A stretch of 63,405 nt of DNA, the filler included. It is 9 parts of 9 records of this genome, joined end to end, with 100 filler letters (N's around TTAATTAATTAA, not from the genome) between each part and the next. Parts side by side here need not be neighbours in the genome. Positions count along the whole stretch, not along the records: positions 7,433 to 17,223 come from SRR31147125_12555; 8 more parts are not named here. The stretch is one strand, 5' to 3'. This document shows positions 5,322 to 25,955 of this stretch, piece after piece. Numbering within the stretch: position 1 is the stretch's first letter; each line of letters begins with the position of its first letter. The position numbers and the translations under genes are program-made. The notes beneath the pieces were generated by a model that saw only the letters and a program-made list of their open reading frames with translations, ran no database searches and was not told the DNA's origin.

Positions 5322-5334
5322 TTCTTAATCGGTT

Positions 5335-5730
5335 TCATTTTTGTGATAATCCGCTTCGTATCACATTCTCTAATTCGGTTGCCGACCATGGTTTGCTTAT
5401 ATAAGCATGCAGGCCAGCGTTGTTAAATGCATTGTTAATGGCGGTTTCATCAGCTTGTCCAGTCAACATAACTTTGACAATATTAGGAAATTTTTTGTGA
5501 ACATCTATTAAAAATTCATCTCCTTTCATACCGGGCATTAACCAATCTGAAACAATGACCAAAACTTCAATATCTTCTTCTGCAAGTTCTTCAATAACTT
5601 CGAGTCCCTCTGCTGCATTTTCAGCCGATTCGTAGAGATATTCATTCCCAAAAATATTCTTGATCTGTTCTCCCAAACTTTCAAGAATAATATTTTCATC
5701 ATCGACACAAACAATTGCTTTTTTGTTCAT
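5335..5730 (-). CDS. Single-domain response regulator
   Basis: CVDDE, SDWLMPG, MLTG and KPW receiver motifs; no output domain. Confidence 0.92.
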   Translation of the reverse strand: MNKKAIVCVDDENIILESLGEQIKNIFGNEYLYESAENAAEGLEVIEELAEEDIEVLVIVSDWLMPGMKGDEFLIDVHKKFPNIVKVMLTGQADETAINNAFNNAGLHAYISKPWSATELENVIRSGLSQK

Positions 5731-5735
5731 ATTAA

Positions 5736-7166
5736 TTAATTTACCGGTAATGTAACTGTAAATGTTGTTCCCAGGCCAACTTTGCTTTCCAGAGTGAGTT
5801 TTGCACCGTGTTTTTTTATAATTTTTGCAACTAAGTCTAATCCAATTCCTGTTCCTTCTCCTGCTCTTTTGGTTGTAAAAAATGGTTCAAAAATTTTCTG
5901 TTTGTTTTCTTCTGAAATTCCGCATCCGGTGTCGGAAATAGCAACTTTAACTTTATCTCCTGCATTTTTTATTGAAATAGTTATAGTTCCAACATTATCC
6001 ATGGCATGAATAGAATTTGATATCAGGTTGGTCCAAACCTGAACCAGCTCATCCGGATAACAACTAACCATTGGTACGTCATCAAATTCGGTAACAACTT
6101 CAATGCCCTGCTTTAAATGGTTATGATGGAGCGTTAGAACTGTTTCTATATTCTCCACGAGGTTCGCTTTTTCTTTTTCTCCTCCCTGATCTTTATGAAT
6201 AAAACGTTTTAAAGCAAATACTACTTTCGATGCTTTTTCAACAGCCATTTTTATATTGTCTGAATTTTTGCGAACCGAATAAATGTCTTTAACCGATTTC
6301 AATATAAATTCAGGATTGTCTACTTTTAATAAAGGGAGCAGATCGGCAACTTCGTTATATAAGTTTAAATAGATAATAAGTTCTGTAATTGCCAGGGGAT
6401 CTTGAAATCCTGCCTCTTCAACTTTTTGCCTGATTGCTCGTTTTTGTTGCCGTTTTTCTTTCGATGATAGAGGAAGAGCTTTACGATCAATCAGATTAAG
6501 AATGCGTAAAAATACGGTGAGCTCTTTTTTCGACAATTTGGTAAGTAAGCTGTAAAGGTTTTGTAACGATGAATCGAGCGAAGCAGAAATATTTTCAACA
6601 GAAGCATTTATCGCTCCAATTGGCGTATTTATTTCGTGCGCAATACCGGCAACCAGATGTCCCAGTGCTCCCATTTTTTCCGACTGTACAAGTTGTGATT
6701 GTGTTTGTTTCAGATTCGAAATATTTTCTTCCAAATCTTCTTTTTGCTTCTGTAGTTCCTTATTTTGTTTCGTTATTATTTTTTCCTGCTGTTTCCGTTC
6801 AGTAATATCGTGTGCAACTCCGTCAACCGAATCCAGCTTCCCTTTTTCGTCATACAAAGGCGATTCGGTAATTTCAATAACTTTTATTTTTCCGTCTTTG
6901 GTGTAAAGTTCGAGTTCGAAGGTTTTTTGTTTGTGACCCGATGCACTTTTCTGCAGAGTTTCAATGGTTTTTTTATTCTTTTTGCTGTCGGTCATGTGTT
7001 TTACAATACCTTCAAAAGCTTCTTCTACAGTGTATCCCAACACCGTTTCAACCGATGGGCTAATATATAAATACTCGCCAGCCAGATTATGAGAATAAAA
7101 AAAGTACTCATTTCCAACGCTTTCAATCAGCTTTTTATATTTTTTTCCGTCTTCCATATCAGGCAA
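5736..7166 (-). CDS. Cytoplasmic PAS-domain sensor histidine kinase (NtrB-like)
   Basis: PAS/PAC (YISPSVETVLGY, HDITERK), AHEINTP H-box, N/G1/F/G2 boxes; the start may be the ATG at 7157. Confidence 0.92.
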   Translation of the reverse strand: MPDMEDGKKYKKLIESVGNEYFFYSHNLAGEYLYISPSVETVLGYTVEEAFEGIVKHMTDSKKNKKTIETLQKSASGHKQKTFELELYTKDGKIKVIEITESPLYDEKGKLDSVDGVAHDITERKQQEKIITKQNKELQKQKEDLEENISNLKQTQSQLVQSEKMGALGHLVAGIAHEINTPIGAINASVENISASLDSSLQNLYSLLTKLSKKELTVFLRILNLIDRKALPLSSKEKRQQKRAIRQKVEEAGFQDPLAITELIIYLNLYNEVADLLPLLKVDNPEFILKSVKDIYSVRKNSDNIKMAVEKASKVVFALKRFIHKDQGGEKEKANLVENIETVLTLHHNHLKQGIEVVTEFDDVPMVSCYPDELVQVWTNLISNSIHAMDNVGTITISIKNAGDKVKVAISDTGCGISEENKQKIFEPFFTTKRAGEGTGIGLDLVAKIIKKHGAKLTLESKVGLGTTFTVTLPVN

Positions 7167-7432: not shown

Positions 7433-7443
7433 GGGGTATTTAA

Positions 7444-8058
7444 TCAATCGAGAATTACATCGAGCCCTGCAAGTAAAGAAACGGCCTCTGGAAGGGAAAA
7501 TCTAGTCTTTTTTATAAGGTTATTATTAGGGTCAATTGAGTAATTAGTTGCCAGTCGAAAATCAGATTGCGTTAAATTAGTTTTTAGAAACCGGCTACTT
7601 GTAAAATCCGTAGCGTTAAAGTTTCCGCTTGCCAAATTAGCTTCACCAAAATCTACATCCCTCGCAATGCATTCGACCATTATCATTTTTGTAAGGTTTA
7701 GCCCAAAAAAAGAGGATAAGTTTATCAAACAAGAGTAAAAGTTAACACTCAGGGGTGTTGCCGCCTCCGTCCAATTAACACCAACCAACTTACTATCCTT
7801 AAAGTTTACATCAATAAACGAACAATATTGAGGCTTAACCAGGCTAAGATCACATTTTGTGAACTCACAATCTTCGAATCGACATTTTTGGAATATCGAT
7901 CCGCTAAATTTACAATTTACAAATTTACAATTATAAAATTCAAGGTTTTTAAAATCTCCGTCTTTTGACTCTTTTTGTTCAAACGTTTGCCCTTCATGGG
8001 TCTTCTCAAACCCAGCCCACCGACTGTTCTCCTGTGAAAACAATGGAAGCTCTTCCAT
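7444..8058 (-). CDS. Pentapeptide repeat protein (MfpA/Qnr-like fold)
   Basis: Repeated [CA]xFxx/xDLxx pentapeptides; C-terminal YSIDPNNNLIKKTRFS motif. Confidence 0.88.
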   Translation of the reverse strand: MEELPLFSQENSRWAGFEKTHEGQTFEQKESKDGDFKNLEFYNCKFVNCKFSGSIFQKCRFEDCEFTKCDLSLVKPQYCSFIDVNFKDSKLVGVNWTEAATPLSVNFYSCLINLSSFFGLNLTKMIMVECIARDVDFGEANLASGNFNATDFTSSRFLKTNLTQSDFRLATNYSIDPNNNLIKKTRFSLPEAVSLLAGLDVILD

Positions 8059-8135
8059 ATCAAAACCTCATGAATAATACGTGCTAGAATTCCAACCCCG
8101 ACTGCGGCCAGACAGAACAAAAGTCTCTCATTTTT

Positions 8136-8693
8136 CTATTCTCGCCAATGTTCTGGTTGATTAAGCACCTCGGAACACTGGATTTTTCCTGTTACTCTTC
8201 CTATAACCCCATTACTTAACTCTTGCACCATCCAAGCACCCGCATGTTCCTCTGGAATGGGATATGGGGCTTCGTAACCAAGTGCCCCTGCCGGGATAAA
8301 GCCAGAGCGTGGATAATAATCCGGATGTCCGAGAACAAAGACTAACTCAACACCTGCTTTTTTTAATTGACTCAATCCCTCTTTGATAAGTTGGCCACCA
8401 ACACCCTTACTTTGAACATCCGGCAGAACTGCGAGAGGTGCAAGTATTTGGGCAGATACTGACTCAGAAGATTCTGTTACTGTCACCTTCGTATAAAGTA
8501 TATGACCAATAATCTTGTTATCTTCAACTGCTACAAGCGATAGTATTGGGATTGCTGTTTCATCATTCATCAATCCCTGTACAAGTTCCGCAATTTCAGG
8601 TCCTTTTTTTTCGCCAAAGGCCTTTATATGAACATTGCTTATTTCTGTTTTGTCCGATTCTGTTGATTTTCTAATTTCCACAATAATCTCCAT
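8136..8693 (-). CDS. GNAT N-acetyltransferase (YhbS-like)
   Basis: LAPLAVLPDVQSKGVGGQLI and VFVLGHPDYYPRSGF. Confidence 0.92.
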   Translation of the reverse strand: MEIIVEIRKSTESDKTEISNVHIKAFGEKKGPEIAELVQGLMNDETAIPILSLVAVEDNKIIGHILYTKVTVTESSESVSAQILAPLAVLPDVQSKGVGGQLIKEGLSQLKKAGVELVFVLGHPDYYPRSGFIPAGALGYEAPYPIPEEHAGAWMVQELSNGVIGRVTGKIQCSEVLNQPEHWRE

Positions 8694-8744
8694 TTTGTGC
8701 TGAAAAAAATTTGCCCAGCAAAAATTTTCATAAATTAATACGGG

Positions 8745-8841
8745 CTAGGAGTCTGTCGGACATAGGGGATCGTAACGAGAAAAGTGGAAACTGAGGCGGT
8801 GTTTTCACAATGGATTCATTCTAAGTCAGACAGGCTTCTAG
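8745..8841. mobile_element. 97-bp MITE with CTAG at both ends
   Basis: Left end CTAGGAGTCTGTCGGACATAG matches the reverse complement of the right end (CTAGAAGCCTGTCTGACTTAG) at 17/21 positions; no transposase ORF. Confidence 0.7.
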
Positions 8842-9653
8842 GTTTATAGTTCTCCCGCAACCGCGTCTCAACGAACCCGAACTTCCGTATATTCTTGTAT
8901 GAATGTTGCGGGTCCCCGCCAACAGCCTCGCCCGTTTCCGTAAAGATATGCGTACAACGAAGCTCTCTGGCTTTAGATATTCGTGCGGCAATAATCGCCG
9001 CCTGACTCCCCTTGCGGCGAAACTCCGGGCTGGTAGCCCCCCAATCTATCCAGGCCTTGTCCCCCACCACAAATAATGCTCCGGCTCCCGCAGGAATGTC
9101 GCCCTCATAACTGACAAACAAGTACCAGCGCGGGTCATCGGCAAGCCCGGCCAACAAAGGTATTGCAGCATCTGTCAGATCAAAGGCGTTGCAGACAATC
9201 CTGCCAAAATCTTCCGCTTTATCAGGGCAGATTTCTTCGATTCTTAAATTCGTGGATACCTCAATTGGCGGTGCCGCATCACGATGAAAGTTCATCCAGC
9301 CGCGAGCCTTTCTCAAGCCCGGCGTCCGATAATCGTTGGGGCCATTCATTGGGCATATCGTTCAAGTAAAGATGCAAGAAAAAGCTGCTGACACCTAATT
9401 TCTGATAAGCATCCACAACTTTTTTTATGGATCCCAACTCCATCGGCGCACCCGAACCGAGTCCCAGCACCCTGTTTAACAGAATACTTGTGTCATTTTC
9501 AGCAGCAATTACAACGGCGTCGGCAATTTCTAACAGATGCAACCCGAGACTCTTCCTTGTTTCCTCAGGACAGTTAGCATGCAGGCTGATTAATGCCTCA
9601 CGCTCTATCTCATCTGAAACACGCTCTATTTCCAACATTTCTGTTTCACTCAC
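8816..9653 (-). CDS. GNAT-family acetyltransferase, split by a 1-bp frameshift near 9309
   Basis: ATSPEFRRKGSQ acetyl-CoA motif and SYKNIRKFGF; removing one base at about 9307-9311 joins SDAGLEK to ARGWMNF (about 278 aa). Confidence 0.8.
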
Positions 9654-9915
9654 CTTTCACGCTGAAACAAGAATATAAATCTGGTGCCTTTTCCGCACAT
9701 ATCCACAAAATTATCCAGTTTGAAGTAGTCAGTCTTGAAGTTGATGTCCACCTTTCCCATGGTTTTGGCAAACAGCTCATCCCGAGCCTCTTTACTTGCG
9801 GTATTGCTCTGCCTGTTCGCGGTTACCCTGACCTCCATTCCATTTTTTCCACCATTAGCCTGGTTACACCCATAAGTACCAGTTCGCTCAGGGCTCCTCG
9901 TTGTTCCTTTGCCAT
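9650..9915 (-). CDS. Small hypothetical protein, probably frameshifted
   Basis: ATG at 9915 reads MAKEQRGALSELVLMGVTRLMVEK; one extra base in the T6 run at 9843-9848 continues into NGMEVRVTANRQ...FLFQRER (about 88 aa); its stop overlaps the next start (GTGA). Confidence 0.5.
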
Positions 9916-9933
9916 GTTTGCTTGCCAAATCCT

Positions 9934-10623
9934 TTAAGCCGATTCCTCACTCTTCTCACTCGGCCGGTACCGCTCAATAACCTTTTTGAATTTTTCCAGA
10001 TCACCCTCCGCACCGGAGAACATAGCTGTAAAATCGTCATTCCCAAAATATGCCGCTCGTTGCTGAGTTGTAATCTTTGATTTTTTACATTGCACCCAGA
10101 TTGAAGCCCATGCCTGAAAAATACAGAGAGCAACCAGTATCCAAAAGGAGTTCTCCGGCGCTAAAGCCTGGCTCGAAGTCCCGATATGCTCGCGAAGAAT
10201 CGTCACAAAAATCGTTATGCCCAGGAAACAGGCCATCGGAATTGTGTAATAGTAGGTCATCCACCGCGACATCCCCTTGCCTTCTGCCGAACACATCATC
10301 ATGGTTCTAATTGGCGGCATTTGAGGGTTGTCATGTTCCCACTTCAGACCCACCAGGAATACCGAGTTCAACAATCGCTGATAAACCAGCTGATCATTAA
10401 TCCATAACAGCAAAAGACCGATGGTGGCCATTAAACTCACGAGTCCAACCAGAACCGCACTTGGAACCAACCAAGTTGAATCTTCGCTGATTTTTATCAG
10501 AACCGCGATGGCCGCGAAAGCCGCAAGAATCCAAGTCGAAGCCCGGTTGCGGATTCCAGCCTGGATCGTGTTGAAGTGACGCTCCGACTCAACAAATTTC
10601 CAATATTCCTCTTTTGAATCCAT
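9934..10623 (-). CDS. Hypothetical membrane protein (about 4 TM segments)
   Basis: 229-aa ORF with four hydrophobic stretches; GGAG SD upstream. Confidence 0.75.
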   Translation of the reverse strand: MDSKEEYWKFVESERHFNTIQAGIRNRASTWILAAFAAIAVLIKISEDSTWLVPSAVLVGLVSLMATIGLLLLWINDQLVYQRLLNSVFLVGLKWEHDNPQMPPIRTMMMCSAEGKGMSRWMTYYYTIPMACFLGITIFVTILREHIGTSSQALAPENSFWILVALCIFQAWASIWVQCKKSKITTQQRAAYFGNDDFTAMFSGAEGDLEKFKKVIERYRPSEKSEESA

Positions 10624-10715
10624 GGTCTAAATCTCCATTCGGGAAATTCTGTTGAAAGTATTAAAGAGCTCTTTACCTTCGATCACAAGAATGGGCATGT
10701 TTGCCATTTACCTCA

Positions 10716-11843
10716 TCACCAACTCTCTTTTTTCGGCTGGAGAGGAATCAGCTCATATTCACGACTCCCAAGTCCTATCTTTTCAGCATGCTCCAGAGTG
10801 ATATTTCCATCGATAAGCGGATGCACCCCCCTGAATTTATCGCCACCCGGTTCATGCCCTTTCTTTAAAGCGGTTCCCGGCAGACCCTGGGCCTGGTTGA
10901 CCAGATCGAGGCAAGCCTGGTCGACGGCCACCGGGTCGGTTGAGGCGAGGATGCCGATATCCGGAACGATCGGGGCGTCGGAATGGCCGTAGCAATCGCA
11001 GTCCGGTGAAACCTGCATGACAAAATTGACGTGCAACGATTTTTCCTTTTTACCTTCCAGCGCTCCGACAGCATACTCGGCCATTTTTTTCATGACCATC
11101 GGCGCACTCTGGTTCCACTGAATCTGGATCGCCCTCTCAGGACAGGCCGTAATGCAGCGACTGCAACCGACGCACTTCTCGTCAATAATCCGGGCCTTAC
11201 CCTCGGCAAACTCGATGGCGTCATGAGCGCAGGCTTTCAGGCAAGCCCCACAACCGGTGCAGAGTTCCACCGCAACCTTCGGCGCAACGCTGGAGTGCTG
11301 CTCCATTTTCCCTTCCCGGCTGCAGCAGCCCATGCCGAGGTTCTTTACCGCGCCACCAAAGCCGGTGAGTTCATGGCCCTTGAAGTGGGAAACGATCACC
11401 ATGGCATCCGCCTCCAGGATTTCCAGTCCGATATCGACGGTTTTAAGAATTTCCCCGTTGACTTCGACCCGCCTGGCGGAATGCCCGCGCAATCCGTCGC
11501 ACATGACCAGGGGAGCGCCGACCACGGCATAAGCCAGGCCGTTTTCAATACCGCACCTCAAAGCCGAGACGGCTTCTTTCCGTTCGCCGGGGTAGAGCGT
11601 GGACGAATCGGTGACAAAGGGCCTCGCATCCAGTTCCTTGAGGCGCTCGACAACGCTGCGAAGGAACGTCGGCCGCACAAAAGCGTGCCCCCCTTTTTCA
11701 CCGAAGTGCGTTTTAACTGCGACCAAATCCCCTTGGAGGATAATATCCGCCAATCCCGCGTCGTTCAGAAGCCTGACCAGTTTAGTGTGTAGATTTTCAT
11801 TGTGTCCTGAACGCATGTCGGAAAAATAAACCTTTGAAGACAT
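10716..11843 (-). CDS. DUF362-domain protein with a 2x[4Fe-4S] ferredoxin insert
   Basis: VAVKTHFGE, SHFKGH, GGAVKNLGMG, CTGCGAC...C, CVGCSRC...CP, CDC and DPVAVDQA. Confidence 0.92.
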   Translation of the reverse strand: MSSKVYFSDMRSGHNENLHTKLVRLLNDAGLADIILQGDLVAVKTHFGEKGGHAFVRPTFLRSVVERLKELDARPFVTDSSTLYPGERKEAVSALRCGIENGLAYAVVGAPLVMCDGLRGHSARRVEVNGEILKTVDIGLEILEADAMVIVSHFKGHELTGFGGAVKNLGMGCCSREGKMEQHSSVAPKVAVELCTGCGACLKACAHDAIEFAEGKARIIDEKCVGCSRCITACPERAIQIQWNQSAPMVMKKMAEYAVGALEGKKEKSLHVNFVMQVSPDCDCYGHSDAPIVPDIGILASTDPVAVDQACLDLVNQAQGLPGTALKKGHEPGGDKFRGVHPLIDGNITLEHAEKIGLGSREYELIPLQPKKESW

Positions 11844-12037
11844 CTTTTTCTCCTCTCTTTTTCAAATAACTCTACAACAAAGCGCCGGAAAATAATGGCC
11901 CGAAAACTTTAAAATCTCCGGCGCCTGTCAAATTTTGCCACTCTGTTTAAGTTTATTAATGTTTTTATGCCGACACATGGGAATTTCAGTGAAAGATGAT
12001 ATCATAAAGAATATGTTTTTTGAAAAGGAGGGATAAA

Positions 12038-13078
12038 TTGGATCAGAAACAGCGATTTCAACTTCTGCAGAGAGCCCGCCTGAAAAGCATCCTGAAAAAA
12101 AGCACCATTTTTCTAATTGTCGGTGTTCTCCTTTATTATGGTATCGCACTGGTTTACGCCACCAAAACCATTTACAAAGTCCGCTTCAATTACGCCGTAG
12201 TCCTGGAGGACCTCGCCGGCAAACGACGGGTCGTGGACGATGTCGGCTGGCATATCCGACCTCCTTTCTTTTCACGCCTCGAACTGGAAGTTCCGCTGAT
12301 GAACCAGGAGCTTTATCTCGGCGGCGACCCCCAGGAGCAGAGGATCATTTCCAGGGGAAATGTCGCTCTTTGGGCCAGCGCCATGCTGACCTACCGCATC
12401 ACCAACCTGAAAAGATGGGGCATTGAAAACCGTGACCCCAAACAATTGTTCCAGAATGATTTCGACGGCATGGTCAAGGACGTGATGCAGGGAAAATCGA
12501 TCAATGAACTGATTTCCCAGCGCCAGGCCCTCAAGGAAGAGATCTACCAGATTCTCAAAAAAGACCCCATCAATGTCGGCGGACCGACCATGGAAGATAA
12601 ATACGGTGTCGAGATCATTTCGTTTGTTCTGCGCAATACCCGCTTCGGCGATAAACTAGCCGAGGCAAGTGAGGAAAAGAAGCGCCGCGAAATGATTGCC
12701 GAAGCTGAGAACTACGCGGCTGATCAGGAGGCCAGCAGGATCCGCAAACTGTATGCGGCTTATCGTGATTCCATCCGCGATTTCAGAAACGCTCTGGGCT
12801 TTAATCAACAGAATGATCAAGTCCTCCTCGATTTTTTGAATCAGCAGAAGTGGGCAACCGCTTACGAAAAAAACCAGCACGGGCAGAACACCTTTGTCCT
12901 GAACAATACCGCGGGAAGTCCTCCCATCGTTCTTCCCGCGCCAACTGCTTCGACTGGGATCGAACCGCCTGAGTCAGGAAACAATGGAGCCACTGGAAAC
13001 CAGGTCGTACCGGGTCCAACCCTGACGGAAGCCCTGAAAAAATATCCCTGGACCCAACAGCAAAACGCAAACAAGTAA
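12038..13078 (+). CDS. SPFH/band-7 (HflK/HflC-like) membrane protein
   Basis: AAGGAGG SD before TTG at 12038; single N-terminal TM; GWHIRPPF, YRI, INELISQR and YGVEIISFVL match SPFH; C-terminal coiled coil and Pro-rich tail. Confidence 0.8.
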   Translation: MDQKQRFQLLQRARLKSILKKSTIFLIVGVLLYYGIALVYATKTIYKVRFNYAVVLEDLAGKRRVVDDVGWHIRPPFFSRLELEVPLMNQELYLGGDPQEQRIISRGNVALWASAMLTYRITNLKRWGIENRDPKQLFQNDFDGMVKDVMQGKSINELISQRQALKEEIYQILKKDPINVGGPTMEDKYGVEIISFVLRNTRFGDKLAEASEEKKRREMIAEAENYAADQEASRIRKLYAAYRDSIRDFRNALGFNQQNDQVLLDFLNQQKWATAYEKNQHGQNTFVLNNTAGSPPIVLPAPTASTGIEPPESGNNGATGNQVVPGPTLTEALKKYPWTQQQNANK

Positions 13079-13240
13079 TCGGACGAAAATAAGGAGTTGA
13101 CACCAGATTTCGGACCCGGCAAGGAAAATCAATCCGGTCCGTTAAACCTTATTCGAGTTTTTCCACAACCTGGTAGCGGGGACCCAGCCGGTTGCACTTC
13201 CGGCACCCTCGATAAATCGGAAAGGAGATTCAAGGATAAC

Positions 13241-16200
13241 ATGTCAACCGTGCGCAAAACCAAAACCCCCATCAACGTCCGGCTTTCCGAGAAACGTTTA
13301 CGTCAGATCCAGAATCTGGTTGAAAGCTGGAATTATGAAACCCGCAGTTTCGTTCTTCAGCGCCTGAGACAATACCATCCCAAGCCTTCTCTTTTCAGAT
13401 TCATCCGCATTCTCCTTCGCCGCATGCTCCAACCATCAGAACGCCGCTTCCATATGCTTCGCAATCCCGAATCTCTGAGCGACTGGCATCGGCGCATGGA
13501 GATTTCAGGCTCCCCCAGCGCTTCGGCGGCATGGAACAAAATATTGGAACGGGAGCTCGACCGCCACGACTACTACTATCTGACCTATCTTCTTGAACGG
13601 GAAACCGCCGATATTTACGTCCCCCAGTACCTACGGGACTTTTTTGAAAAAATCTATCATGCTCATGTCCTGAAAGAATACTCTGAGGACAGCTCCATTC
13701 CACGCTCGCTGGTTTTGATTATCGGATCTTCAGGCAGCGGGAAAAGCGCCACACTCACCCAGGCCTTGGAAGAAACCATTTTTTCCATGGAAGTGCGCCC
13801 CACCATCGATCTGAAAGCCAAAAAGGAAGAGGTTCTTAAGGAGCAACCAATCTGGAAAGGGCTGGAAGAGGTCGACCCGGAACTGGCAGCTGAAATTGAA
13901 AGACGCCGCAAGGTTGAACAGCTGAAATTTCTCTCGCGACTTCCGGTCATAAAATATTTGTACCGGCAGCGGGTGGCCCAGGCCCTCTCGTCACTGGAAG
14001 AAAAAGGGATTCTGGTCGATTATGCCCAGATCACACCCAACGACTTTCAGACCGCCTGGGCCGGCGAACCGGGCAACCGCCTGCGCAAAGCCATGGGTGA
14101 AGCGGATCAACCCTGCATTCGTCATCTCGAAGAAGCCCACTCGGCATTCGGCCGCCTTGATCAGACCAGTTCCGTCAAAAGTCAGCAGGCAACCCTGGTG
14201 GACACCGCCAATATCCTGCTCGATGAAATTTCCCAGGGCAAGCGGGATTGCCTTCTTATCGCCACAACGGACCAGCCTGAGCAGTTCGAGCCATCTATCT
14301 ACAGGCGTTTTGTGGAGCGTGGACAGATCATCGACATCAATGACCTCTGGCAGCACCCTGAAAACCTCAAGGAAGTGGTTCGTCTCGAGCTGCGCCGCAG
14401 CAACTTTTTCCTCGCCACTTCAGATGAAAAGGAGGAAATCAATCAGGAAGTCCTGCTCGATGAGACGATCGAAAAAGTTCTGCCGATCTTCCACGAGCGC
14501 ACCCTGCGGATGACCCCTGCTTACCTGCGCCGGCTTATCGGTTCGATTATCGCCCTGAAAAAAGATTTTCATCCCAGCTACCTGGATGATCAGTTCCTGG
14601 TCCGGGATGCCTTCAAGGCGGTTGCCAAAAACGTCTACGGCTCACTGTACAAAAAAGTCATCGGCCGCATGGAGCGCGATGTGCACTGGCAGGACTACAT
14701 CGGGTCCATCAAGGATGAGTTTTCAGAGATGGCCAACAATTCTCTTTTTTACAGCGTCCAGGATGAAAAGGGCGTTGTCCTCTCCGGCCCCCCGGTTCGG
14801 GAAAAACCTACATGGTAAAAGCCTGGCTGGGGGAAAACACCGAGGTCCAGGATATTCTGGTCTACATGAATGATCTGAGCGATCCCGCGAATCCCTATGA
14901 GGGATTGGTGGAAAACCTGGAGCGCGTATATGACATTGCCAAGATGATCTCACCCAGCCTGGTCTTTTTCGATGAAGGGGACGCCATTGCCCCGCGCCGT
15001 TCCCAACAGGGGGAACGCCCTATGATAAAGTGACCAACAAGTTTCTCTCCATCATCGACGGCGAAGCGCCTCTCCACCATGTGTTTACCGTTTTGACGAC
15101 CAACCGCCTAGACATCCTCGATCCGGCCTTGATCCGCTCCAAGCGACTGAAGGTGTTGAACGTCTCCGGTCAGATGCGGGAAGAGGATTCGGTAAGAATT
15201 CTGCGTAAAGAGATAAAGGATATTCCGCTTGAGGAAGGCCTTAATCATGAGGAAATGGTCCGCATCGCCCGCGGCCTGTGCGACACTCCGGCTGATTTTA
15301 CCGCTTACGCCGAAAAAGTCCGCAGCCTGCGGCAAACCGAAGTCGAGGTCCTGGGCCAGCTTGCCAAAGCCATTGCCGGTACTGAAGAGGAGCGCATGCG
15401 TTTTGTCCGCTTCAACCACAAGACCCTTCTCAGTCTGCTGGAAGGAGTCCCCCACCCTACAAACCTGATCGCAAAAGCGCGCCGCAGCGAAGAGGACATG
15501 CTGAAATGCCTGGATGAAGTCGCCAAGCAACTGCAGGAACTCAGTCAAAAGGGCGGCTATCCGGTCACTCGAAGACATCTGATTAACGCCAGACATCAAC
15601 TGGGTCGCAGTCCGACCCGAAAAGGCAAACAGCAGCTTGACCGCTTTCTCGAAACAGAGCTTTCGGTGGAACCTCAGGTCGGTTTTGTCGTCGGCGTCGG
15701 CGCCAATGATGCTTCCGGAGTTTTGCTCCCTATTGCTTCGTCCCTTGTCTACCGTGTTTTTTCGGAAAAAATTGTCGTCACGGGCGCGGTGTCGACGACA
15801 GCACCCGGCGCAGCTGAAATGGATATGGCCGTACAGATGACTCGCCAGAGCGCCCAGGAGGCACTGACCCTGACGGAAAATTACCTGCAGTCCCTCTGTC
15901 CCACACTGAACATCTCACGGATTCTGGGTGAATATCTTGAAGGCTACTCTCTGCACCACCAACTTCTCAGCGCTTCCTATACAGTCGGAGGGCCATCCGC
16001 CGGGTTTGCCCTGGCCATCAACACCCTTTCGGTGCTTCTAAATCTTCCGGTTCTAAACGACTTCGGCATCACCGGAGCGCCCTGGATCAAGGGCGCACAA
16101 AAAGATGAGGTCGGCGCTTCGGTCATCATAGGCGGTCATCGCCGCAAAACCGAAAAAGTGCTTCAATACCTCCCTCGCATGTATATGCCGACCCAGAATT

Positions 16201-16649
16201 ATGAGGATATGGAACCCGAAATTCTTAAAGCTTACCGGATCGAAGGCAAAGAGATTCGCGGCGTACGCAGTTTTTCAAACCTGGTTCAGGAAGTCTTCTT
16301 TTTCGGCGATGAACATTTTCAGCGTCTCGATAAATTTCTCAATGAAAGACTCGAATACGACCTCAAAGAGCACCCGGAAAACGGCGACAATCCGGAAGAA
16401 GCCCGGCTGGCCGATGAAGAGAGCAGGTTGCGGCGCGTTGCTGAGGAGGAAATCCGCCGCCGCATGATGATTATCAGCGACTATGTGACCGGAGACAATA
16501 AATCCAGGGACTATTCAAGCCTGGAAACAGCTTTCAGCAATTTGGCCAAAGGTGAAGCGAAATCCGGCATCCCATCCCGCAGAACTGACACCAGCTCGGA
16601 AAAAAGAACCCTAAAGAAAGAGTCTTTGCCGGCAAAAAATGTCCTTTAG
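13241..16649 (+). CDS. Tandem classical AAA ATPase fused to a Lon (S16) protease domain; two 1-bp frameshifts
   Basis: D1 GSSGSGKS / HLEEAH / IATTD..IYRRF; D2 GPPGSGKT (after +C at 14788-14793) / VFFDEGDAIAPRR / TTNRLDILDPALIR (after +G at 15009-15013); Lon domain GGPSAG, GITG, IGGHRRK; about 1136 aa reconstructed. Confidence 0.85.
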
Positions 16650-16739
16650 AGTAGTTGCGAAAACAGCTTCTATCCTTTAAACTGTAGTCATTTCATTTGC
16701 TTTTAAAAACAAACCGTCTTTAAATTGAGGGAGGCAAGA

Positions 16740-16898
16740 ATGGACAAATATCGTTGTGTCGTGTGTAATTATATTTATGATCCGGCCGAAGGTGATCCGG
16801 ATGCGGGCATTGCCCCTGGAACCGCTTTTGAAGATATTCCGGAAGATTGGGTTTGTCCTCTCTGCGGCGCGGATAAAAGCAATTTTGAAAAAGCCTGA
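16740..16898 (+). CDS. Rubredoxin (52 aa, missing from the ORF track)
   Basis: [59 protein letters not shown]. Confidence 0.97.
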
Positions 16899-16911
16899 TT
16901 GAGGTCAAATT

Positions 16912-17100
16912 ATGGACCGGCAACCCTTTGTGGATCAGGAAGCTTGTATAAGCTGTCATTTTTGTGTGGACACGGTTCCGGAAGTTTTTCGCATGAACGA
17001 AGACAATTCCGCGGAGGTTTATAATCCTTCCGGAGCTCCCAAAATAAAAATCATTGAAGCTATTGAGGGATGCCCGGTTTCGTGCATCCATTGGGATTAG
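16912..17100 (+). CDS. Single-cluster ferredoxin
   Basis: CISCHFC...CPVSCI; GAGG SD. Confidence 0.93.
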   Translation: MDRQPFVDQEACISCHFCVDTVPEVFRMNEDNSAEVYNPSGAPKIKIIEAIEGCPVSCIHWD

Positions 17101-17223
17101 TCCATTTACCCGGATTATTCATGAAAACTTTTACTGCAACCGTCAATTGCACACCATCTCAGACCGTGCTCACTCCTTGCTCTTCGACGTACAGAAAGTA
17201 CGCCTGCATCGCGCGTCACTGTG

Positions 17224-17323: not shown

Positions 17324-20300
17324 ATCATCAAACACAGTAGCAGCACTCGGGCGGCTGACGGACCTGTGCAAGTCCTGCAAACAATCCTCCCATCATTTTG
17401 TAGTCCATTCCCTCGGAACAATTGTAGACCTTGCAGGGTGTGAACACACACGTACCCACCCACACCACCCCTATGGAGGCGTACCACACACTGCCTCCCG
17501 AGTGCCTTAGCAAGATCCTTTACAGTTTCCGTTTTACCCGTTCCGGCAGGCCCAGCAGGGGATCCGCCCAAGTGAAGCCGCAACGCACTCGTCAGGGTAA
17601 GATCTGTACCATCAGAGTTAAGGTACAGTTGGAGTGGAACACGAAACGGGATACAGCATCGGTCTGTCAGAGGTGTCACCACAAGACGTGTTGTAGCTCC
17701 CAGATACTCATGCCCGTAGAGGAAGCGTGAATTTGTTTGCTGAACGATACAATCGTCTTCATCCATGTCCCAGTAGAACCTTGAATCCCACCACCCAAAG
17801 TCAGAGAAACCCAATCCCCTCTCTCCACCCTGTCTCCTTCCACACGGACCTTAGTTGTTGGAGCCACTGGAAGTCCGTTTCCGTCGATACCTTGCTTTTA
17901 ATCAAGTGATCAATGATATCACGGGCGTGTACATCAATAGTGATCAACGTCACCAGGGCACAACGTTGCAGACTCGTAATATCCTTGCGCACAAGAGACG
18001 CAAGACCATTGAGCTGTTCCACGCACTTCTCTTTCATCTCCCCCAGAGCGTCAAGCGGGTCATCGGCGCTCAGGCATTGCGTTACGTCGCGGCACCAGTA
18101 GATTTGTGAACCTGTAAGAACCACTTGTGCAGGATACTCGAGCACCCATTGTTCACGTTCGACCTTTTCATACCTGAGAAGGAACGCAAGGTTAAGGAAC
18201 CCGCTTGGGCGTGCGTGGCAAGGGGAACGGATACTCCATAACAGCCGTGCGCAGGATTTTTCGCAGGCTTTGCATCATGCTCTGTTCAACCGCTGCAAGC
18301 CATAACTCCACATTGCCCCTTGCCTTCAAATTCTTGCCCAGAGACACACGCTCGCCCTCCGCTGAAATCATTGCCAGGATATCCACGCTGCGAGGATCAT
18401 TTCCAAAGTCCAACGAGACGATATCTGTAGAAGGTTAAGCAGGACAACCCAACCCAGAGAGGACAATTGAAAGAGGGGATACTGTCAAAACATTTGCGCA
18501 GATGGGGCTGCACAGCTTGGGCATTCTTGCTCTGGGCTAGAATTTCCAACAACTCATCATTAGAAAGGAAGTAAAAACGTGGGAACTTGTTGCGCTTTGT
18601 CTCGAGGTAATCTTCAAGATTCTTCTGCACCTTATCCAGTTGTTCATTGTTCTTACGGAGCGCATCCAAGAGACCGGGAATCGTTCCTGCCTTCACAGCA
18701 TTCCGGATATCGCTTGTACGCTTCATGATCTCTGAAAGACAATCAGAGGAACACACACCAGAAATCCACACACCCTTCCATGACTTGTCCACCGCAAAGA
18801 ACAATTTCGCCTCCACGGGAAGCTGTCGTTGAATGTCGAGAGCGGTGAAGATGCTTTCCAAGTACAACCAATTCTTCTGACAGGTCATCAACTCTTCCAT
18901 GGTTCCAGAAAAGAGTGACAGGTTCTTTTCCCACTCCTCTACCGTCTGTGCGCGAAACCCAGTGTTAACTCATCATCTCTCTCCGTTTGAGAGAAGGCAA
19001 TACCTTACGAATTGGTTCCACGTAACGTGAAGCGGCAATGGTTGCCACAGTTACCTGGCTATCATCCAATAACGCCATGATATCTTCCGAGTTTGTCACG
19101 ATATAGCCGTCCTGTGAATCCTTGTGCGCCACGACATTGATCTCCGTCTGAGCCCAGGTGCGTGTCACCTTTCCGAACAACTCCTCCAAGGCAACCTCTT
19201 GGGAGGCCTCGTTGGCCACCATTCCGATACTGTCTCGAACTTGGTGCGGCAGATACATGTCAAAAAAAAAAGAAGAGGTCCTTGACCCACAGAACGTACA
19301 TGTGAGGAACTTGAGTCGAAACAGGTTTCCAACTGTGAAACCCTTGTCCCGGAAGACATCTTCACCCAGAACCACATTGAGCTTCTCCCAGTGACGCGCT
19401 TGTAGAGCAGGATTCCGTAGATCTGATAATACGGGAACCGCGTTCTGATAATCCATCCCATGAGAATGAGTGAGTCGGGCCGCACACAAACACGCACCTT
19501 GAAATCACTGATCAAGGCTCGAAGACGCGAGACAATGATATTGGGGGGCAGAGCTCGTTCAAGTGCAAGAACCTGCTTCAAGTAACTCTGGACACTTGTC
19601 TCCACGGCCCCCATGTCCACGGTCTGGAGGGGTGTCTCCTTCCATTGTGCAGTGATCTCTTCCCAATCGTTAAACGTAGTCCATAACTTGCTCTTGAGTG
19701 TCAAATCGGAGACCACTTCTTCAAGCTCCTCATATTTCGTGACAGGAACCCCCAAGATCTCCTGGTATTCGCCAAATTTGGCGGCATCGGCGGATAAACG
19801 GTCCACTTCGTTTTGGATTCCCTGAAGAAAGTCCAACACCTCACACAGTTGCGATTCACCCGAAAGGATCTGTTCAGAAGTAAAGGGGAGAAACGAAAGC
19901 GCTTCATCTATCGAATGGATACAATTGGATGTTGAATCTTCTGTTTGAGCTCGGCAATGGAAATGTTAAGCTTTCCAATGTTCGTTTCAAGTTGGGCCAC
20001 GAATTTTTGCGCGACTGTGAGAGATGTAAGGCACACACACAAACATGAAAAGGAAGAAGGTTCGATGGATACTCTCATCCTTGGCACCCTCGGAATAGTT
20101 CAAAGACGCTTTCAGTTGTGTCAATGTTGGGATAAGGCGTTGGAAGTCATGGTACTCGGACATCATCACCTTGATCTGGTGGAGAGTCAAAACCTCATGA
20201 ACAGGACGGGGCGACTCATACCTTATTCTCCTCCATGAGCTTATAGAAGTCTGTAACCATGCCAACCTTTTCCTCGAGATCAGGCAACTCTCCGGTCATA

Positions 20301-23061
20301 CGGTGGATTGTACTCAAAAAGTCAACAAAATCTTCCACCTGCACGGAAGATGTCAGAACACCACACCCCCGACCCCACACACAAACCGATGTCGGTGTGG
20401 CCGAGAGACTCTGAATGGCGACTTGGAGTTCCGAAAGAACAACTCCCGTCTTCTCTCGTGCGATAACAGGTAATAACTCTTGAATTTCCTTGAGACATCG
20501 TCGTGGTGAGGGTGTAATGAGTTCCTTGAATTTCTTGCTATCCACACGCAAGATTCCAATGTTCGTTGTGGTGGTGAGACTAATGAAGTCACATGAGTAA
20601 GAAGGGCACAGCGAAAGGGGAGGGGGGGGACGTACCCATCAAACTCCTCAACCTGACTCTTGTACTTCTTCATGTCCTTTCTGAAGTCATCGGCCAAGTA
20701 CCCACCATCTTTGAAGGCTTGAATGTCTTGGAAGGTGAGTAAAGGGTCAAAACTGAGAATACGACTACTACAGCGGATACTTGTGGATCGATTCTCCAAG
20801 TGCATCCCCAGGAAGGGCTCAAACCACTTGACATGCTCCAATGCGGCATTGAGAGCACTGTCAATGGCATCCAAGATCTCGCCCACGACGTCCTGATATT
20901 TGTCATCTTCCAGGATTATTACGCTCAGATCGTTTCCTCGGTTTGCCGTGAGTTCAACAATGTCGGCCGTGATGTGCCGGAAACCCTCCTGTAGGCAGCA
21001 GTTCATTCCTCCATTCGTGTACACACGCACACACACACACACATACGCCATCGCACCTCAACCAGAAGCTTGTCGACGGAGGATACCGCCTTCACAAAGT
21101 AGCAGATGATGGCCTTGATACGTCCCTGGAAATCGTCTCGAGACGGTTTGAACACGAACACATCGTCGTTCACCAGGAGCTCAATGACACAGAGCGGAGC
21201 ATTCGATGCCTCGTGTACACGTTTCTTCGGTGGTGCAGACTGCGACGACGCATCGACGCGCTCAGCCCCCGGAAGAGCTGTCTTTCCTCCACCGCGAAAG
21301 ACACGAAGGAGATCGTTAAGGGATTCCATGCACAGCAGTCGAAGTGCGTCCAGCATGACAAAGTCACAGAGTCGAATGTCTACAGGATCGCTTAGATTGT
21401 TTTCCACCCGCCACCTGCCACCCGCCACCCACAACACGTACAATTAACAAGTTTTCGGCACTCGAGACGTTTAGCAGCCATCTCCGTGTAGGATAGATCT
21501 TTTTGGGTCGAAGCCACTCCAAGAGGTTTCAGGCGCTCCGTGTTTCGAGAATGGAGGGTGGCAGAGATAGAAGATGCTCCTGTGCCGCCGGCATTCACCA
21601 TGGCAATGTATCGCTCGGCTTCCATTCCGGCACTGGCAAGGACGGCATCGCACGCTTCGTGGACGGTTGAACGAATCGCTTCCCAGAATTTCTGAAAGTG
21701 TGTGGCCACAACAGCTTTTTGGGCCCTCTGGAGTCCGAAGAACTCCTCAAGTGTAACTGTACGAATCGTCAAGGATTTGTGAGGGGATGGAGAACTCCCC
21801 CAAAGGAGGATGGATATGTCTGGTTCCTTGCCAGTTTGTAGAGTTGTAACGTACTAATCTCATAGCATCGATCGCGAATGGCAAGAAGCGACTTGCGAAG
21901 GGGTGTGCTGAGGATGAAGAGGTTGTCTTCGAGCACGATCTTGGCCGCGTCCATCTTGCTTTGCCGTACATTCTTCCTCCATACCGTATACGCCTTTTGA
22001 CAAAGTGTGTGTGTCCCCGTCAGTCAGTCCTTCCATGAAGGCACACCAGAACCGGAACAAGGTACCTTCCATATACGATATTTCTGAAACGTTCCGATTT
22101 GTAGTAGTCGATTGAACACAGAGTGTTCACGTTCCCATTGTTCGAGTGGTGTGAATTCTAATACGAAGGGTGTTTGAGAAACGTAGGTGCATGCATGATC
22201 ACACTTCCAACCTGCCAAATTGTTGACGAAATGGGTCACTCCTGCAAGACTTAGTGTGTAGTAGTCTGTCACATTGATCGCCGAATGGGGTACAACTTCC
22301 AGATTGTATGGGTTGAAGATCTCGGACTCAACCGGTTTCATGTACACGAACTCCCCTTCCTTGCCGCTCTCACGAGCTTGCCTGGATCGATCGTTAAGGA
22401 TTTTACCTCCCAGCCCCAGTTCATGCCATCGAACACCCCCAACAACCACATGGATACGGATGAACACAGAGGGATCGCGTGAGGCCTCCATCCCACCCGA
22501 CGTTCGGGTAAGAGAGGGAAGGTTGTTTCTTTTTCGCGGAGGCACACGAAGCAGATCCTCTTCGTGTGTGGAGGAGAGGGTTCGAGGGTCGGGTGGGGCT
22601 GGGGCAGGTTCCTGTGGCGACAATGGTTAAGGGGTTTCGCCTACAACACAGGACGGCGCCACAGGGAGAATTGCGGATACAAGGGGCGTCAAGTGATGTC
22701 CTTTGGGAAAGGGAACGCGGCCCTGTCCCGTCGAGTCGACGCAGGTTAGAGTGGGATGGGTCGTTCCGCGCCCAACCAAACCCATCCAACGCACCCGCAG
22801 GTCGGCGTCCCCAGTTTCACCTCCTCGCATACGCGCCGCTCTCGCTCCGCGTACGAGGAGGGCGGGTCCTGTGGGATGGGGCAGGTCGTAGAGGCGGGAG
22901 ACCGGTGCCGATGGCGAAGAGCCTTCACCGACATCGCCCGTTGTGTCGGTTGCCTCTGCATGACTGCCTCCCGGTGTGTTTGGTTTGTTGGCGTCTTCGA
23001 GGTCTCTGCCACCGTTGGTAGGGGAGGGACTTACGCGCCGACGGTCCTCCTTACGCTCCAT
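17324..23061 (-). CDS. Axonemal dynein heavy chain, DNAH6-like (multi-exon, truncated in AAA1 at the contig edge; 5' end approximate)
   Basis: Exons encode [86 protein letters not shown] and YNCSEG; GT-AG introns at 17430-17484, 17604-17654 and 17780-17849 restore the conserved frame. Confidence 0.93.
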
Positions 23062-23132
23062 GGTGTGTCAGCCACTCATGCAAGCAACACACCGCAGGGA
23101 GAGAGTTGTGCGAAGTCATCACCGCCACACAC

Positions 23133-23203
23133 CATCATTCATCATTCATCACATCATTCATCATCATCATCATTAGGATCATTAGGATCATTAGGATCGT
23201 CAT
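23133..23203. repeat. Low-complexity (CAT)n and (CATTAGGAT)3 repeat between divergent eukaryotic genes
   Basis: Directly visible tandem repeats. Confidence 0.75.
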
Positions 23204-23229
23204 TCCTTTCCTTTCTTCCCACTCCTCCG

Positions 23230-25955
23230 CTGATGCTGGGAACACCCATGTTGAGTCATGTAGAGGAGAAGAGAGCTCGTCGCAACGGAGGACGACGCTC
23301 GCCAGCTCGAAATAGTCGAGGAGGACCCCCCGACCTCCCCAGCTTAACGACTATGTAATTCAATCCGTGGAACCTGTCGTAGCACCCACACTGGTGTGCT
23401 CCTGATCCCTTCAGCCGAAGCGTGCATTGTCCCCGACTCATGCCGATTTCTACACAGCACAACCCCGAGGCCACCCCGCCCCATGTGCAAGAAGCCTTTC
23501 GTATCTTCAGTGGTGCACGGAAACGAGTGGTCCCAGAGAAGCCGCGGTTTCTTCCATGTGAGCCACAAACTCTCACCCCCAGAAGTTCGAAATGGACATC
23601 CCGAGCACTACTCGTGTGTGGAGCGGTGTGATTTCCCACCTGGTGTTGACAAACAAGTCGTTGTGCAGGCGATGGACCACCCAAACGAGAAGACGGAACA
23701 GACGCTGATAACGTTCGTGAGGAGCTTCTTGTCCACTCACATGCTCGTCTTCCAGGAGATGAGGTCTGAAACTGGCCTTCTCGGGGTGGGTCTCTCACTT
23801 CCCTCCTTTCAGGCACGCGTTTCTCTGTTTCGATGCTATGAACCGGAATTCGAATGGTTCAGTGCTGAATCGCACGTTTGTGAACGACGTCCACTTCCTG
23901 AACGCCTGGAAGATGGGTGCGTGTCGTGTTGTTTGTCCTCTCGTTGCTCACGAGATGCATAGGGCCGTGCGATTCACCGTGGAATGTCTTTCATTCGAAT
24001 TGGGCTTGCAAGATCTCGAGCCATTGTTTTGTTCTCTGGCGTTGTACGACCTTGCCACCCACGCAAAGGTGTCGGAGGATTTTCACGTTGACCTGAACAC
24101 CGAGCGTGCCCGGAGTGGATTCAACGTGGCTCTTCTGTTGGTTTGTCCTTGTCGTTGTCACCTTTTTCCCTTCTCTCAGTTCTGCGTAGGGTGGGATGGG
24201 AGAGGACTTGGGGCGCACAGCCCTCTTCTCTGTCTCGGATCATCCTCTCGATGACATCTTTCTCGTACTACACGTGGAAAAGATTCTCGGGACTACAGAT
24301 CCAAAGACCTATCTCTCCCCCTACAAACACCCCGAATCGGTGAGGGGAATGAGTATACTCGTGCTGTGTGACAGACTCATTGGAGATGGCTTGCATAGAA
24401 AACGGCATCGGATCGATCGAAGCTGCATGACAAGCTGTCCGAAAGCGCCGTACGTTTGGGTGAGTTCAGGCAAGCGTTCCTTTGGTCGGCCCTTCGACTC
24501 CTCGATAAGAATCGACAGTCCTTATTGGAGGGAGAGGTGAAGTTCTCGACCTTGAACCGCGTGAAGGAAAGTCTTTCCTTGTCGCGTCAAGTGGACCTCA
24601 TCCAAGAAAGTCTTGTGCGTGTACCTCTTTGTAGAGTTGATGATCCTGACGGGTGTCTCCGTGAAGGATCCGAAAAAGCATCCCAAGACAATCCCGGGAT
24701 GCTTCACGATTCGAATTACACATCTTACAGATTCCAAACTGCGACCATCAACCTTACTTGATGCCAGCATGCAGCGTCTTGTCGTCCCGCCCGATCAGTC
24801 CATGACTCACGACCCAGGAGTGCGTTTGTGGCGTGTCCTTTGAGCTTCGATCAGAGGATCACGCCCGGGTAGATGACACGCGAGGTAATGGAAACACCCG
24901 TACGAACACCCGTGCAGCCCGTCTTTGGTTATCGAAACATTATGTACCTCTATCCAGAGGGCGTAACGGGACTTGAGAAGTATCGCAACATATCGGTTAT
25001 GGTTGGGTTGCACGAAAGCGACGCGGAAATACGGCAGGGTCTTGAGGTGCGTATCGACGATGGCAGACTCGTGTGGGGTAATGGGGGAAATGGTCATCAG
25101 GCCATATTTCGCAAGACTCGTGGTCCCGACTTGTCCACTTCTGCATTCAGCCAGGTCACCTACCATCGACGTGATCCTGTTTTTGGAGACGAATTTAAGA
25201 TCTGGATCCCCGATTGTGCCTCGCAGAACCATCACTTCCTCTTCACGTTTTGGAATATTAGTTGTGCCAATCCCAAGAAGGCCGCCAAGGTGAGAGGTGG
25301 CGACGAGATCAGAGACGTTGAGAATTCATACATCACAAACACAGACAGCCATTGGGTACTCTGTCCTCCCGCTGTTTGAATCTCAAAACAGGTACGAAAA
25401 GAGGATCTTTCCCCGCAAGAGACAGTCTCATCGTCTTCTGTAGGCTTCTATCCGGTCCGTTTGTACTCCCCGTCTTTGTGAATCTTCCCAAGAATTATCG
25501 GTCATTCGTTAAGGTAGTGTGATATGCGCACGCACACCTGCTTCTGTTGACCCCCCCACCACCACCCTTTTTTCTTTCTTTCTTTTTCTTGATTAGCCAA
25601 ACGCGACCCATTCGGCACTTTTTCGGTTGAGTGTCGTGGTGGCATCTTCCGTATACCCGACGAATTTCTATCTGGCAAGCTTCTTCACGTTCTATCCCAC
25701 CACTGGCCATTTATCGGATGCTGCAATGATACGGGTATGATATGGCCTCCTTTGTGTGTTGTACACTTAGGAACTTGGTTGTACAGGGTATTGGAGACTT
25801 GTTACAGACAGACAGTATTGTTGCTGCTCCATTTCTCTATCATATTCTGAATCAACTCTTCCGATCTATTTGTGTGGGTTCAGAAACAGTTCGTATTGAA
25901 GCCCAGCGAGCCATGACAAGTGTCCTCTCAAGGTGTGTGTGTGTGTGTGTGTGTG
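23230..25955 (+). CDS. DOCK-family Rho GEF (DOCK6/7/8- or zizimin-like), multi-exon, 3' truncated; 5' end uncertain
   Basis: EPLFCSLALYD...KVSEDFHVDLN, DIFLVLHVEKIL, RLGEFRQAFLWSA, YRNIMYLYP, and C2/DHR-1 segment VTYHRRDPVFGDEFKI...HHFLFTFWNISC; well supported from about 23960. Confidence 0.85.
25933..25955. repeat. (GT)n microsatellite at the contig end
   Basis: Directly visible. Confidence 0.9.

Follow-up and report, generated by a model that had tools for sequence, protein, structure and literature searches.

SPFH proteins are membrane scaffolds found in all domains of life, and the job that is well understood for them is limited to the control of AAA+ proteases or to pairing with NfeD. 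HflK/C and prohibitin control membrane AAA+ proteases (FtsH and m-AAA), and in HflK/C the SPFH domain is periplasmic. Stomatins pair with NfeD proteases, and an archaeal stomatin is cleaved by the Ser-Lys protease that is its operon partner (STOPP/NfeD, PH1510/PH1511). VAT and Cdc48 pass their substrates to the 20S proteasome, which is a separate protease. The locus described here lies in a 63-kb stretch of DNA (the window, meaning the whole of what was analysed), which is made of contigs chained with N spacers between them; on the piece at 7433-17223, an SPFH gene is followed on the same strand by a gene for a protease that joins two AAA modules to a Lon-type peptidase. The pair is a variant on the known SPFH-protease theme. 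Near-perfect adjacency and co-occurrence in related genomes strongly support a functional SPFH-protease pair, and there is good support for regarding the two genes as one functional module. We give a probability of roughly 55% to the reading in which they make up a putative two-gene operon of Desulfuromonadales/Geobacterales whose SPFH assembly supplies membrane attachment and substrate gating to a protease that has no anchor of its own.

The SPFH gene and the AAA-AAA-Lon protease gene

The features of the two genes are listed below; nt stands for nucleotides, aa for amino acids, and residues of the protease domains follow the numbering of P0001, an intact relative.

12027..12032, plus strand: GGAGGG, resembling a Shine-Dalgarno site, 6 nt ahead of the TTG that starts the SPFH gene, read from the sequence
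12038..13078, plus strand: SPFH/Band_7 gene, 346 aa (Pfam PF01145, hydropathy, AlphaFold2 model, Foldseek, alignment)
12104..12160, plus strand: transmembrane segment of the SPFH protein, residues 23-41 (Kyte-Doolittle hydropathy)
13079..13240, plus strand: spacer of 162 nt between the SPFH and protease genes
13241..16649, plus strand: AAA-AAA-Lon gene, about 1137 aa when read through (open reading frame calls, Pfam, homologues, AlphaFold2)
13724..13747, plus strand: Walker A of the first AAA module (D1), GSSGSGKS, with G, G, K and T/S invariant in the alignment
14057..14074, plus strand: pore-loop-like W-[AY]-G motif of D1 (aromatic, hydrophobic, Gly), from the alignment
14788..14793, plus strand: run of six C within Walker A (GPPGSGKT) of the second AAA module (D2), one base short and the site of frameshift 1 (against P0001/L001 and the X1 and X3 contigs)
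14965..14982, plus strand: Walker B of D2, FFDEGD, with the Glu invariant in the alignment
15009..15013, plus strand: run of five G, one base short and the site of frameshift 2 (against P0001/L001 and the X1 contig)
15996..15998, plus strand: predicted catalytic Ser codon in the motif GGPSAG, invariant in 30 of 30 sequences and aligned to GPSAG of a solved Lon protease domain
16146..16148, plus strand: predicted catalytic Lys codon in the motif IIGGxxxK, invariant in 30 of 30 sequences and aligned with its counterpart in an archaeal LonB protease domain
P0001 residues: N-domain 1-148; D1 about 150-475; D2 about 480-800; Lon-like peptidase about 810-1020; C-terminal helices 1025-1085

The SPFH open reading frame (ORF) spans 12020-13078 (+), and judging from its placement behind the GGAGGG, the TTG at 12038 is the likely start. 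The product scores 70.5 bits against PF01145 (cut-off 23.6, E 2.3e-19) and runs from a basic N-tail (residues 1-22) through a membrane helix (23-41) and the SPFH domain to two long helices (205-253 and 257-280 in an AlphaFold2 model with a predicted local distance difference test score, pLDDT, of 65) and a variable, Pro-rich tail; anchor, SPFH domain and long coiled-coil helices thus come in the order seen in ring-forming members. It has one hydrophobic segment, whose top 19-residue Kyte-Doolittle window reaches 2.23 and whose position is kept in all 14 aligned homologues. Across the homologues the N-tail is conserved, with L10, R12 and R14 invariant, and the C-tail varies. Foldseek matches the model to HflK/C, prohibitin, stomatin and QmcA over 257-306 columns (E 6e-13 to 1e-9), a QmcA chain ranking 14th. 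The hflK equivalog TIGR01933 is not reached (17.3 bits against a cut-off of 159.4).

The protease gene, also on the plus strand, begins at the ATG at 13241. In the window it is broken into three ORFs in successive frames, 13097/13241-14818 (AAA), 14812-15033 (AAA) and 15030-16649 (AAA and Lon_C). Each break is a deletion of one nucleotide relative to P0001 (1137 aa, encoded on contig L001), which is 92% identical and continuous at both points. The whole stretch is also present in a Logan contig from run X1, which is likely to be the source sample; there are zero substitutions, and this contig differs from the window by three insertions, C after 14787, G after 15008, and CGC after 13706. The first of these, the C, is shared by X3, a contig of another study. 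(The CGC is an in-frame codon, and the DNA alignment with L001 shows a gap of 3 nt in the same place.) Since both the X1 contig and the 92%-identical relative carry the missing bases, the division into three ORFs reflects homopolymer errors in the assembly as deposited, and the gene is intact in the organism and not a pseudogene. A preliminary description of the locus had reported a single-TM SPFH gene followed, 162 nt on and on the same strand, by a double-AAA/Lon gene with no TM segment, split by two indels; ORF calls, Pfam and hydropathy agree with that layout, and the indels prove to be undercounts by 1 nt in a C run and a G run, repaired by P0001/L001 and X1. Its expectation that automatic annotation would miss the protease holds for the window, but elsewhere the intact homologues, which are 1050-1140 aa long and common in Desulfuromonadales and Geobacterales, are annotated, under the label "AAA family ATPase" or similar.

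The protease joins, in one chain, a double ring like that of Cdc48/VAT and a Ser-Lys peptidase of the LonB type; it is a soluble protein of about 125 kDa that stands outside the described Lon and Cdc48 families. Pfam finds AAA twice and Lon_C on intact homologues, with no Lon_C match on P0127. A 30-member profile has VAT, p97 and Cdc48 as its best solved relatives (E 1e-52 to 3e-54), and the AlphaFold2 model (pLDDT 80.5), which shows a helical insert of about 65 residues in D1, has Cdc48/p97 chains as its top fold matches (E 4e-20). The last 230 residues can be aligned to protease domains of the LonB type, where the serine of GPSAG and the lysine downstream of it fall in register, and phmmer matches this C-terminal domain to a solved Lon protease domain at E 5.7e-5. 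In all 30 sequences, with identities down to 33%, the Walker A lysines of D1 and D2, the Glu at the D1 Walker B position, the D2 Walker B Glu, the D2 sensor Asn, two D2 arginines and the peptidase Ser and Lys are invariant. The W-[AY]-G motif of D1 is one that we take to be an AAA+ pore loop. No 19-residue window resembling a membrane helix occurs in the 30 family members; the best is a buried helix after the catalytic Ser. The N-domain (1-148) has no sequence match in PDB. Its beta-alpha-alpha element at residues 10-44 in the AlphaFold2 model was considered as a possible ribbon-helix-helix DNA-binding motif from the order of secondary structure alone.

Each of the described systems shares part of this organization. 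As in HflK/HflC-FtsH and prohibitin-m-AAA, what would be a ring-forming SPFH membrane scaffold is coupled by its gene to an AAA+ protease that depends on ATP, and D2 belongs, as in FtsH, to the classical AAA clade (FtsH models match it at E 1e-17 to 1e-18). Unlike FtsH, however, the protease lacks a membrane helix and, by Pfam, Peptidase_M41, having two AAA rings and a Lon-type Ser-Lys peptidase instead, and a single SPFH gene stands in place of the HflK/HflC pair. The stomatin-NfeD (STOPP) operons, including QmcA-YbbJ, likewise hold an SPFH gene and a partner, but here Pfam finds no NfeD in the protease or the window's neighbouring genes, there is no ClpP-like fold, the partner is an ATP-dependent, soluble protein of about 1137 aa, and the SPFH gene comes first. 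The tandem classical AAA modules of Cdc48/p97/VAT give the best sequence and fold matches; the CDC48 model of NCBIfam (TIGR01243) aligns over residues 265-739 at 106 bits against a cut-off of 802.65. The protease differs from them in having no CDC48_N (P0001, P0123, P0127 and P0284), in the D1 insert, and in a peptidase fused in cis. With Lon (LonA, LonB and LonC; MEROPS S16) it shares the Lon_C domain, the LonB-type fold alignment and the conserved Ser-Lys dyad, whereas its ATPase modules are Cdc48-like, not Lon-type, form two AAA rings, and come with neither the LON N-domain nor the LonB membrane insert; the Lon equivalogs are not reached (TIGR00763, LonA, 32 against 608; TIGR00764, LonB, 37.9 against 516.6). 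The protease reaches no curated family cut-off in NCBIfam, and in PADLOC-DB 2.0 it has no system-specific match, only generic AAA matches of D2 to IetA and TRIP13 (E 1e-7 to 3e-10).

Both the protease architecture and its pairing with SPFH appear to be undescribed. Neither a paper, a curated family nor a defence model for an SPFH-Lon pair or a Cdc48-Lon fusion was found, the full-text search covering the open literature, and the statement of the preliminary description that no Lon-type SPFH partner was known fits with this. Text searched in a study of prokaryotic SPFH evolution (Hinderhofer et al. 2009, PMC2636767) makes no mention of a Lon protease or AAA ATPase partner, excerpts of a 2008 serine-protease survey (PMC2605481) give Lon architectures without a double-AAA form, and passages of an ESCRT preprint (PMC11188069) place SPFH genes beside Vps4-type ATPases in some archaea, which is not an SPFH-Lon pair.

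Two side observations concern Lon-like domains elsewhere. In genome G001, that of the closest relative, there are about ten Lon_C matches, of which four or five are full LonA-type genes, a large complement of Lon paralogues alongside the protease studied here. The protein P0183 (595 aa) combines an N-terminal caspase-like Peptidase_C14 domain with about 300 C-terminal residues that are 31% identical to P0001 802-1105, the Lon-like region; two peptidase folds are thus joined in an unusual fusion.

Pairing and distribution of the two genes

The arrangement was followed over 57 protease loci, taken from one genome per species. In 55 of them the gene next to it on the upstream side, in the same orientation, encodes an SPFH homologue that is 59-92% identical to that of the window; the preliminary description had named the opposite outcome, homologues mostly without an adjacent SPFH gene, as the one that would speak against it. 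Of the other two loci, L057 begins inside the protease gene and is the other half of the gene in L042, and L050 holds residues 385-816 only, without the first third of the gene and without an SPFH gene, and represents either a fragment or a chimeric contig. The SPFH ORF overlaps the start codon of the protease gene in 46 of the 55 loci, typically by 17, 23 or 71 nt. The 162-nt gap in the window is therefore atypical, since the two genes overlap in most relatives; a promoter and terminator scan found no terminator-like site on the plus strand of this spacer, and the counts from that scan are not above those in shuffled sequences. (In L047 at 5053-6633, L022 at 3321-6041, G414 and G483, either the SPFH ORF reaches deep into the protease gene or the match to the protease is split or truncated, irregularities that are probably further assembly errors.)

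Co-occurrence is as strict as adjacency. In a sample of 201 genomes from the order, the protease is present in 50, the SPFH subfamily in 48 and both in 47, and the two genes are adjacent wherever they are on one contig. In the three genomes with the protease only, its match begins at base 1 or 2 of a contig, and the lone contig with SPFH only ends 65 nt past the SPFH gene. A sample of 401 genomes from the phylum has 10 carriers of the protease, with SPFH adjoining in 10 of 10. A metagenome scan, dominated by the Walker A pattern, returned 44 loci, of which three are family members (L058-L060); L058 and L059 have the same SPFH-protease arrangement, and in L058, which belongs to a separate clade at 50% identity, the genes are 20 nt apart. 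A search for fused SPFH-protease proteins found none at E <= 1e-5 among lengths of 617-2000 aa, which is weak evidence by the search tool's own grading.

What surrounds the pair is much less constant. In the window it is flanked by the following genes.

10716-11843, minus strand: gene for a DUF362 Fe-S protein, divergent and upstream of the SPFH gene
16725-17100, plus strand: genes for a rubredoxin and a small 4Fe-4S ferredoxin, on the same strand as the pair and 75 nt downstream of the protease gene

DUF362 recurs upstream in 23 of the 57 loci and rubredoxin/ferredoxin downstream in 4 of 57, all close relatives; the window's remaining neighbours recur in no other locus or in L001 alone. Clustering of flanking ORFs yielded no third conserved family, none recurring in more than 13 of 48 loci, and the neighbours that do recur are mostly housekeeping genes: phosphofructokinase (PFK), polyphosphate kinase, UvrD, HSP20 and response regulators.

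Over 1.84 billion representative sequences, about ten clusters at 50% identity have the full architecture, and the weaker matches are all generic AAA. Fourteen long proteins from this search were rejected as relatives over the whole architecture, 13 being generic Cdc48/FtsH-type proteins and one the caspase-domain protein P0183. The most distant full-length relatives, at 36-39% identity, include proteins labelled Woesearchaeota and Nanoarchaeota, P0123 and P0284. On the SPFH side, the best 120 homologues listed all come from one clade, and the list is therefore uninformative on distant SPFH partners. ESM Atlas holds high-scoring look-alike clusters of both the SPFH protein and the protease in Bathyarchaeota and Thermoproteota, the protease ones being of about 910 aa with AAA, AAA_5 and Lon_C; a related SPFH-protease pair may exist in archaea. 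Cultured carriers of the module include Malonomonas rubra DSM 5091, Geothermobacter hydrogeniphilus, Desulfuromonas versatilis and Desulfuromonas sp. DDH964, which puts biochemistry, cryo-EM and genetics within reach.

Proposed mechanism and competing explanations

A mechanism can be proposed from the genetic coupling and the models, and it is plausible. The SPFH protein would form a ring on the membrane, as is suggested by the match of its model to full-length subunits of HflK/C, prohibitin, stomatin and QmcA. The protease would assemble into a hexamer, in which substrates are unfolded and then passed into the enzyme's own peptidase chamber. Through physical contact, the ring would tether or gate the protease, giving it a location at the membrane despite its lack of an anchor and controlling the access of substrates to it, and the putative substrates, proteins in or at the membrane patch delimited by SPFH, would be degraded. 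The pair would then be a functional analogue of HflK/C-FtsH and prohibitin-m-AAA. The preliminary description had likewise spoken of an HflKC-FtsH analogue, in which an SPFH cage recruits a soluble protease; its functional pair is strongly supported by adjacency and co-occurrence, and its recruitment by a cage is not, given an ambiguous orientation and a search that found no fused form.

The geometry of such an assembly would depend on the side of the membrane on which the SPFH domain lies. With the SPFH domain outside, the protease would sit beneath the ring on the cytoplasmic side, like the catalytic part of FtsH, and would be held by the basic tails rather than enclosed; with the SPFH domain in the cytoplasm, enclosure or docking on a cage would be possible. 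The pattern of charges leans towards an N-in, SPFH-out topology, as in HflK/C. A stronger version of the proposal, to which we give somewhat less than even chances, is that the pair represents a third, independently evolved partnership of an SPFH ring with an AAA+ protease: a Cdc48-like/Lon chimera docked to the membrane by clustered basic N-tails and helices, or by a cytoplasmic cage, with SPFH selecting the membrane proteins to be extracted and destroyed. A binding prediction for protease residues 1-150 with full-length SPFH scored 0.00, in a run without controls or alignments, and speaks neither for nor against.

Several observations weigh against tethering and gating by an SPFH ring. Lys and Arg residues around the SPFH membrane helix number 5-7 in the N-tail and 2-4 in the 15 residues after the helix, a difference that leaves the orientation ambiguous; and if the SPFH domain is periplasmic, only a basic N-tail of 21 residues would reach the protease, and literal "caging" would be wrong. 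The D2 position that matches a pore loop is non-canonical, P-[IVY]-[DE]-G rather than aromatic-hydrophobic-Gly. Lon_C scores are marginal against the cut-off of 21.1 bits: 23.9 for the window ORF, 21.5 for P0001 and 25.4-31.7 for P0123/P0284. The contexts examined are confined to one bacterial class and to clades with at least about 50% identity to it. Finally, true HflK coexists elsewhere in most carrier genomes: it is above cut-off in 163 of the 201 genomes, 39 of the 50 carriers and 124 of the 151 non-carriers. A distribution complementary to that of HflK was rejected on these counts; HflK is about equally common with and without the module, which would therefore be an addition to HflKC-FtsH and not a replacement for it.

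The main rival reverses the relation between the two proteins: the SPFH protein would be a substrate of the protease, or be matured or turned over by it, the AAA rings extracting or dismantling SPFH rings and the Lon domain cutting them. Strict pairing and gene overlap fit this equally well, Ser-Lys dyad chemistry is common to the protease partner of stomatin, and the conserved N-tail (L10, R12, R14) and variable C-tail could serve as degrons; a stomatin-specific membrane-bound protease is described in the abstract of PMC3795559. That precedent is not matched here by an NfeD domain or by a membrane anchor on the protease, and a double-ring unfoldase of 1137 aa seems heavy for a single substrate. 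We regard this reading as unlikely, if still the foremost competitor of membrane tethering and gating.

Less likely again is a conflict or stress module, for example for anti-phage abortive infection, in which an SPFH sensor or effector would be coupled to an ATP-driven protease that destroys proteins of the host or the invader. A patchy distribution (50 of the 201 order genomes, 10 of the 401 phylum genomes), the weak matches of D2 to the defence ATPases IetA and TRIP13, and SIR2-domain genes as neighbours at some loci could point this way, but the PADLOC matches are to generic AAA (E 1e-7 to 1e-10), with zero matches in PADLOC-DB 2.0 for the SPFH protein. Searches of plasmids and of viral contigs did not find the pair, and gave generic AAA matches only, one to CDC48 in the former and four weak ones to AAA in the latter. 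The module is present in one copy per genome, with mostly housekeeping neighbours, and identity to P0001 declines in parallel with the records' taxon labels, a pattern that resembles vertical descent.

Adjacency by chance is all but excluded, and inherited gene order without joint function, or a decaying pseudogene in the window, is very improbable: all contexts do come from related bacteria and the window copy does have two frameshifts, but the pair stays while its flanks change, the single-gene genomes among the 201 are four contig-end cases only, reading frames overlap in 46 of 55 loci, and the X1 contig restores both frames.

A strictly co-inherited partnership of SPFH with an unrelated, soluble protease would show a modular logic that has arisen more than once, and if the pair is indeed a third such partnership, SPFH rings would be general-purpose gatekeepers for unrelated AAA+ proteases. 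The protease itself appears to be a new architecture, one that places an unfoldase of the type that feeds proteasomes and a Lon-type chamber in a single chain.

Source contig and its surroundings

The piece at 7433-17223 is 81-92% identical in DNA to L001, a contig of a Desulfuromonadales metagenome-assembled genome. Content of guanine plus cytosine along the window ranges from 33% to 55%. The next piece, 17324-25955, encodes dynein heavy-chain fragments (Pfam AAA_6, DHC_N2), eukaryotic DNA adjoining a Desulfuromonadales-like contig, and the window is therefore of mixed origin. At 8816-9653 (-), two overlapping ORFs lie in different frames, split near 9305-9315, with a GNAT domain on the C-terminal one; they may be one acetyltransferase gene, broken by a third homopolymer error on the contig at 7433-17223.

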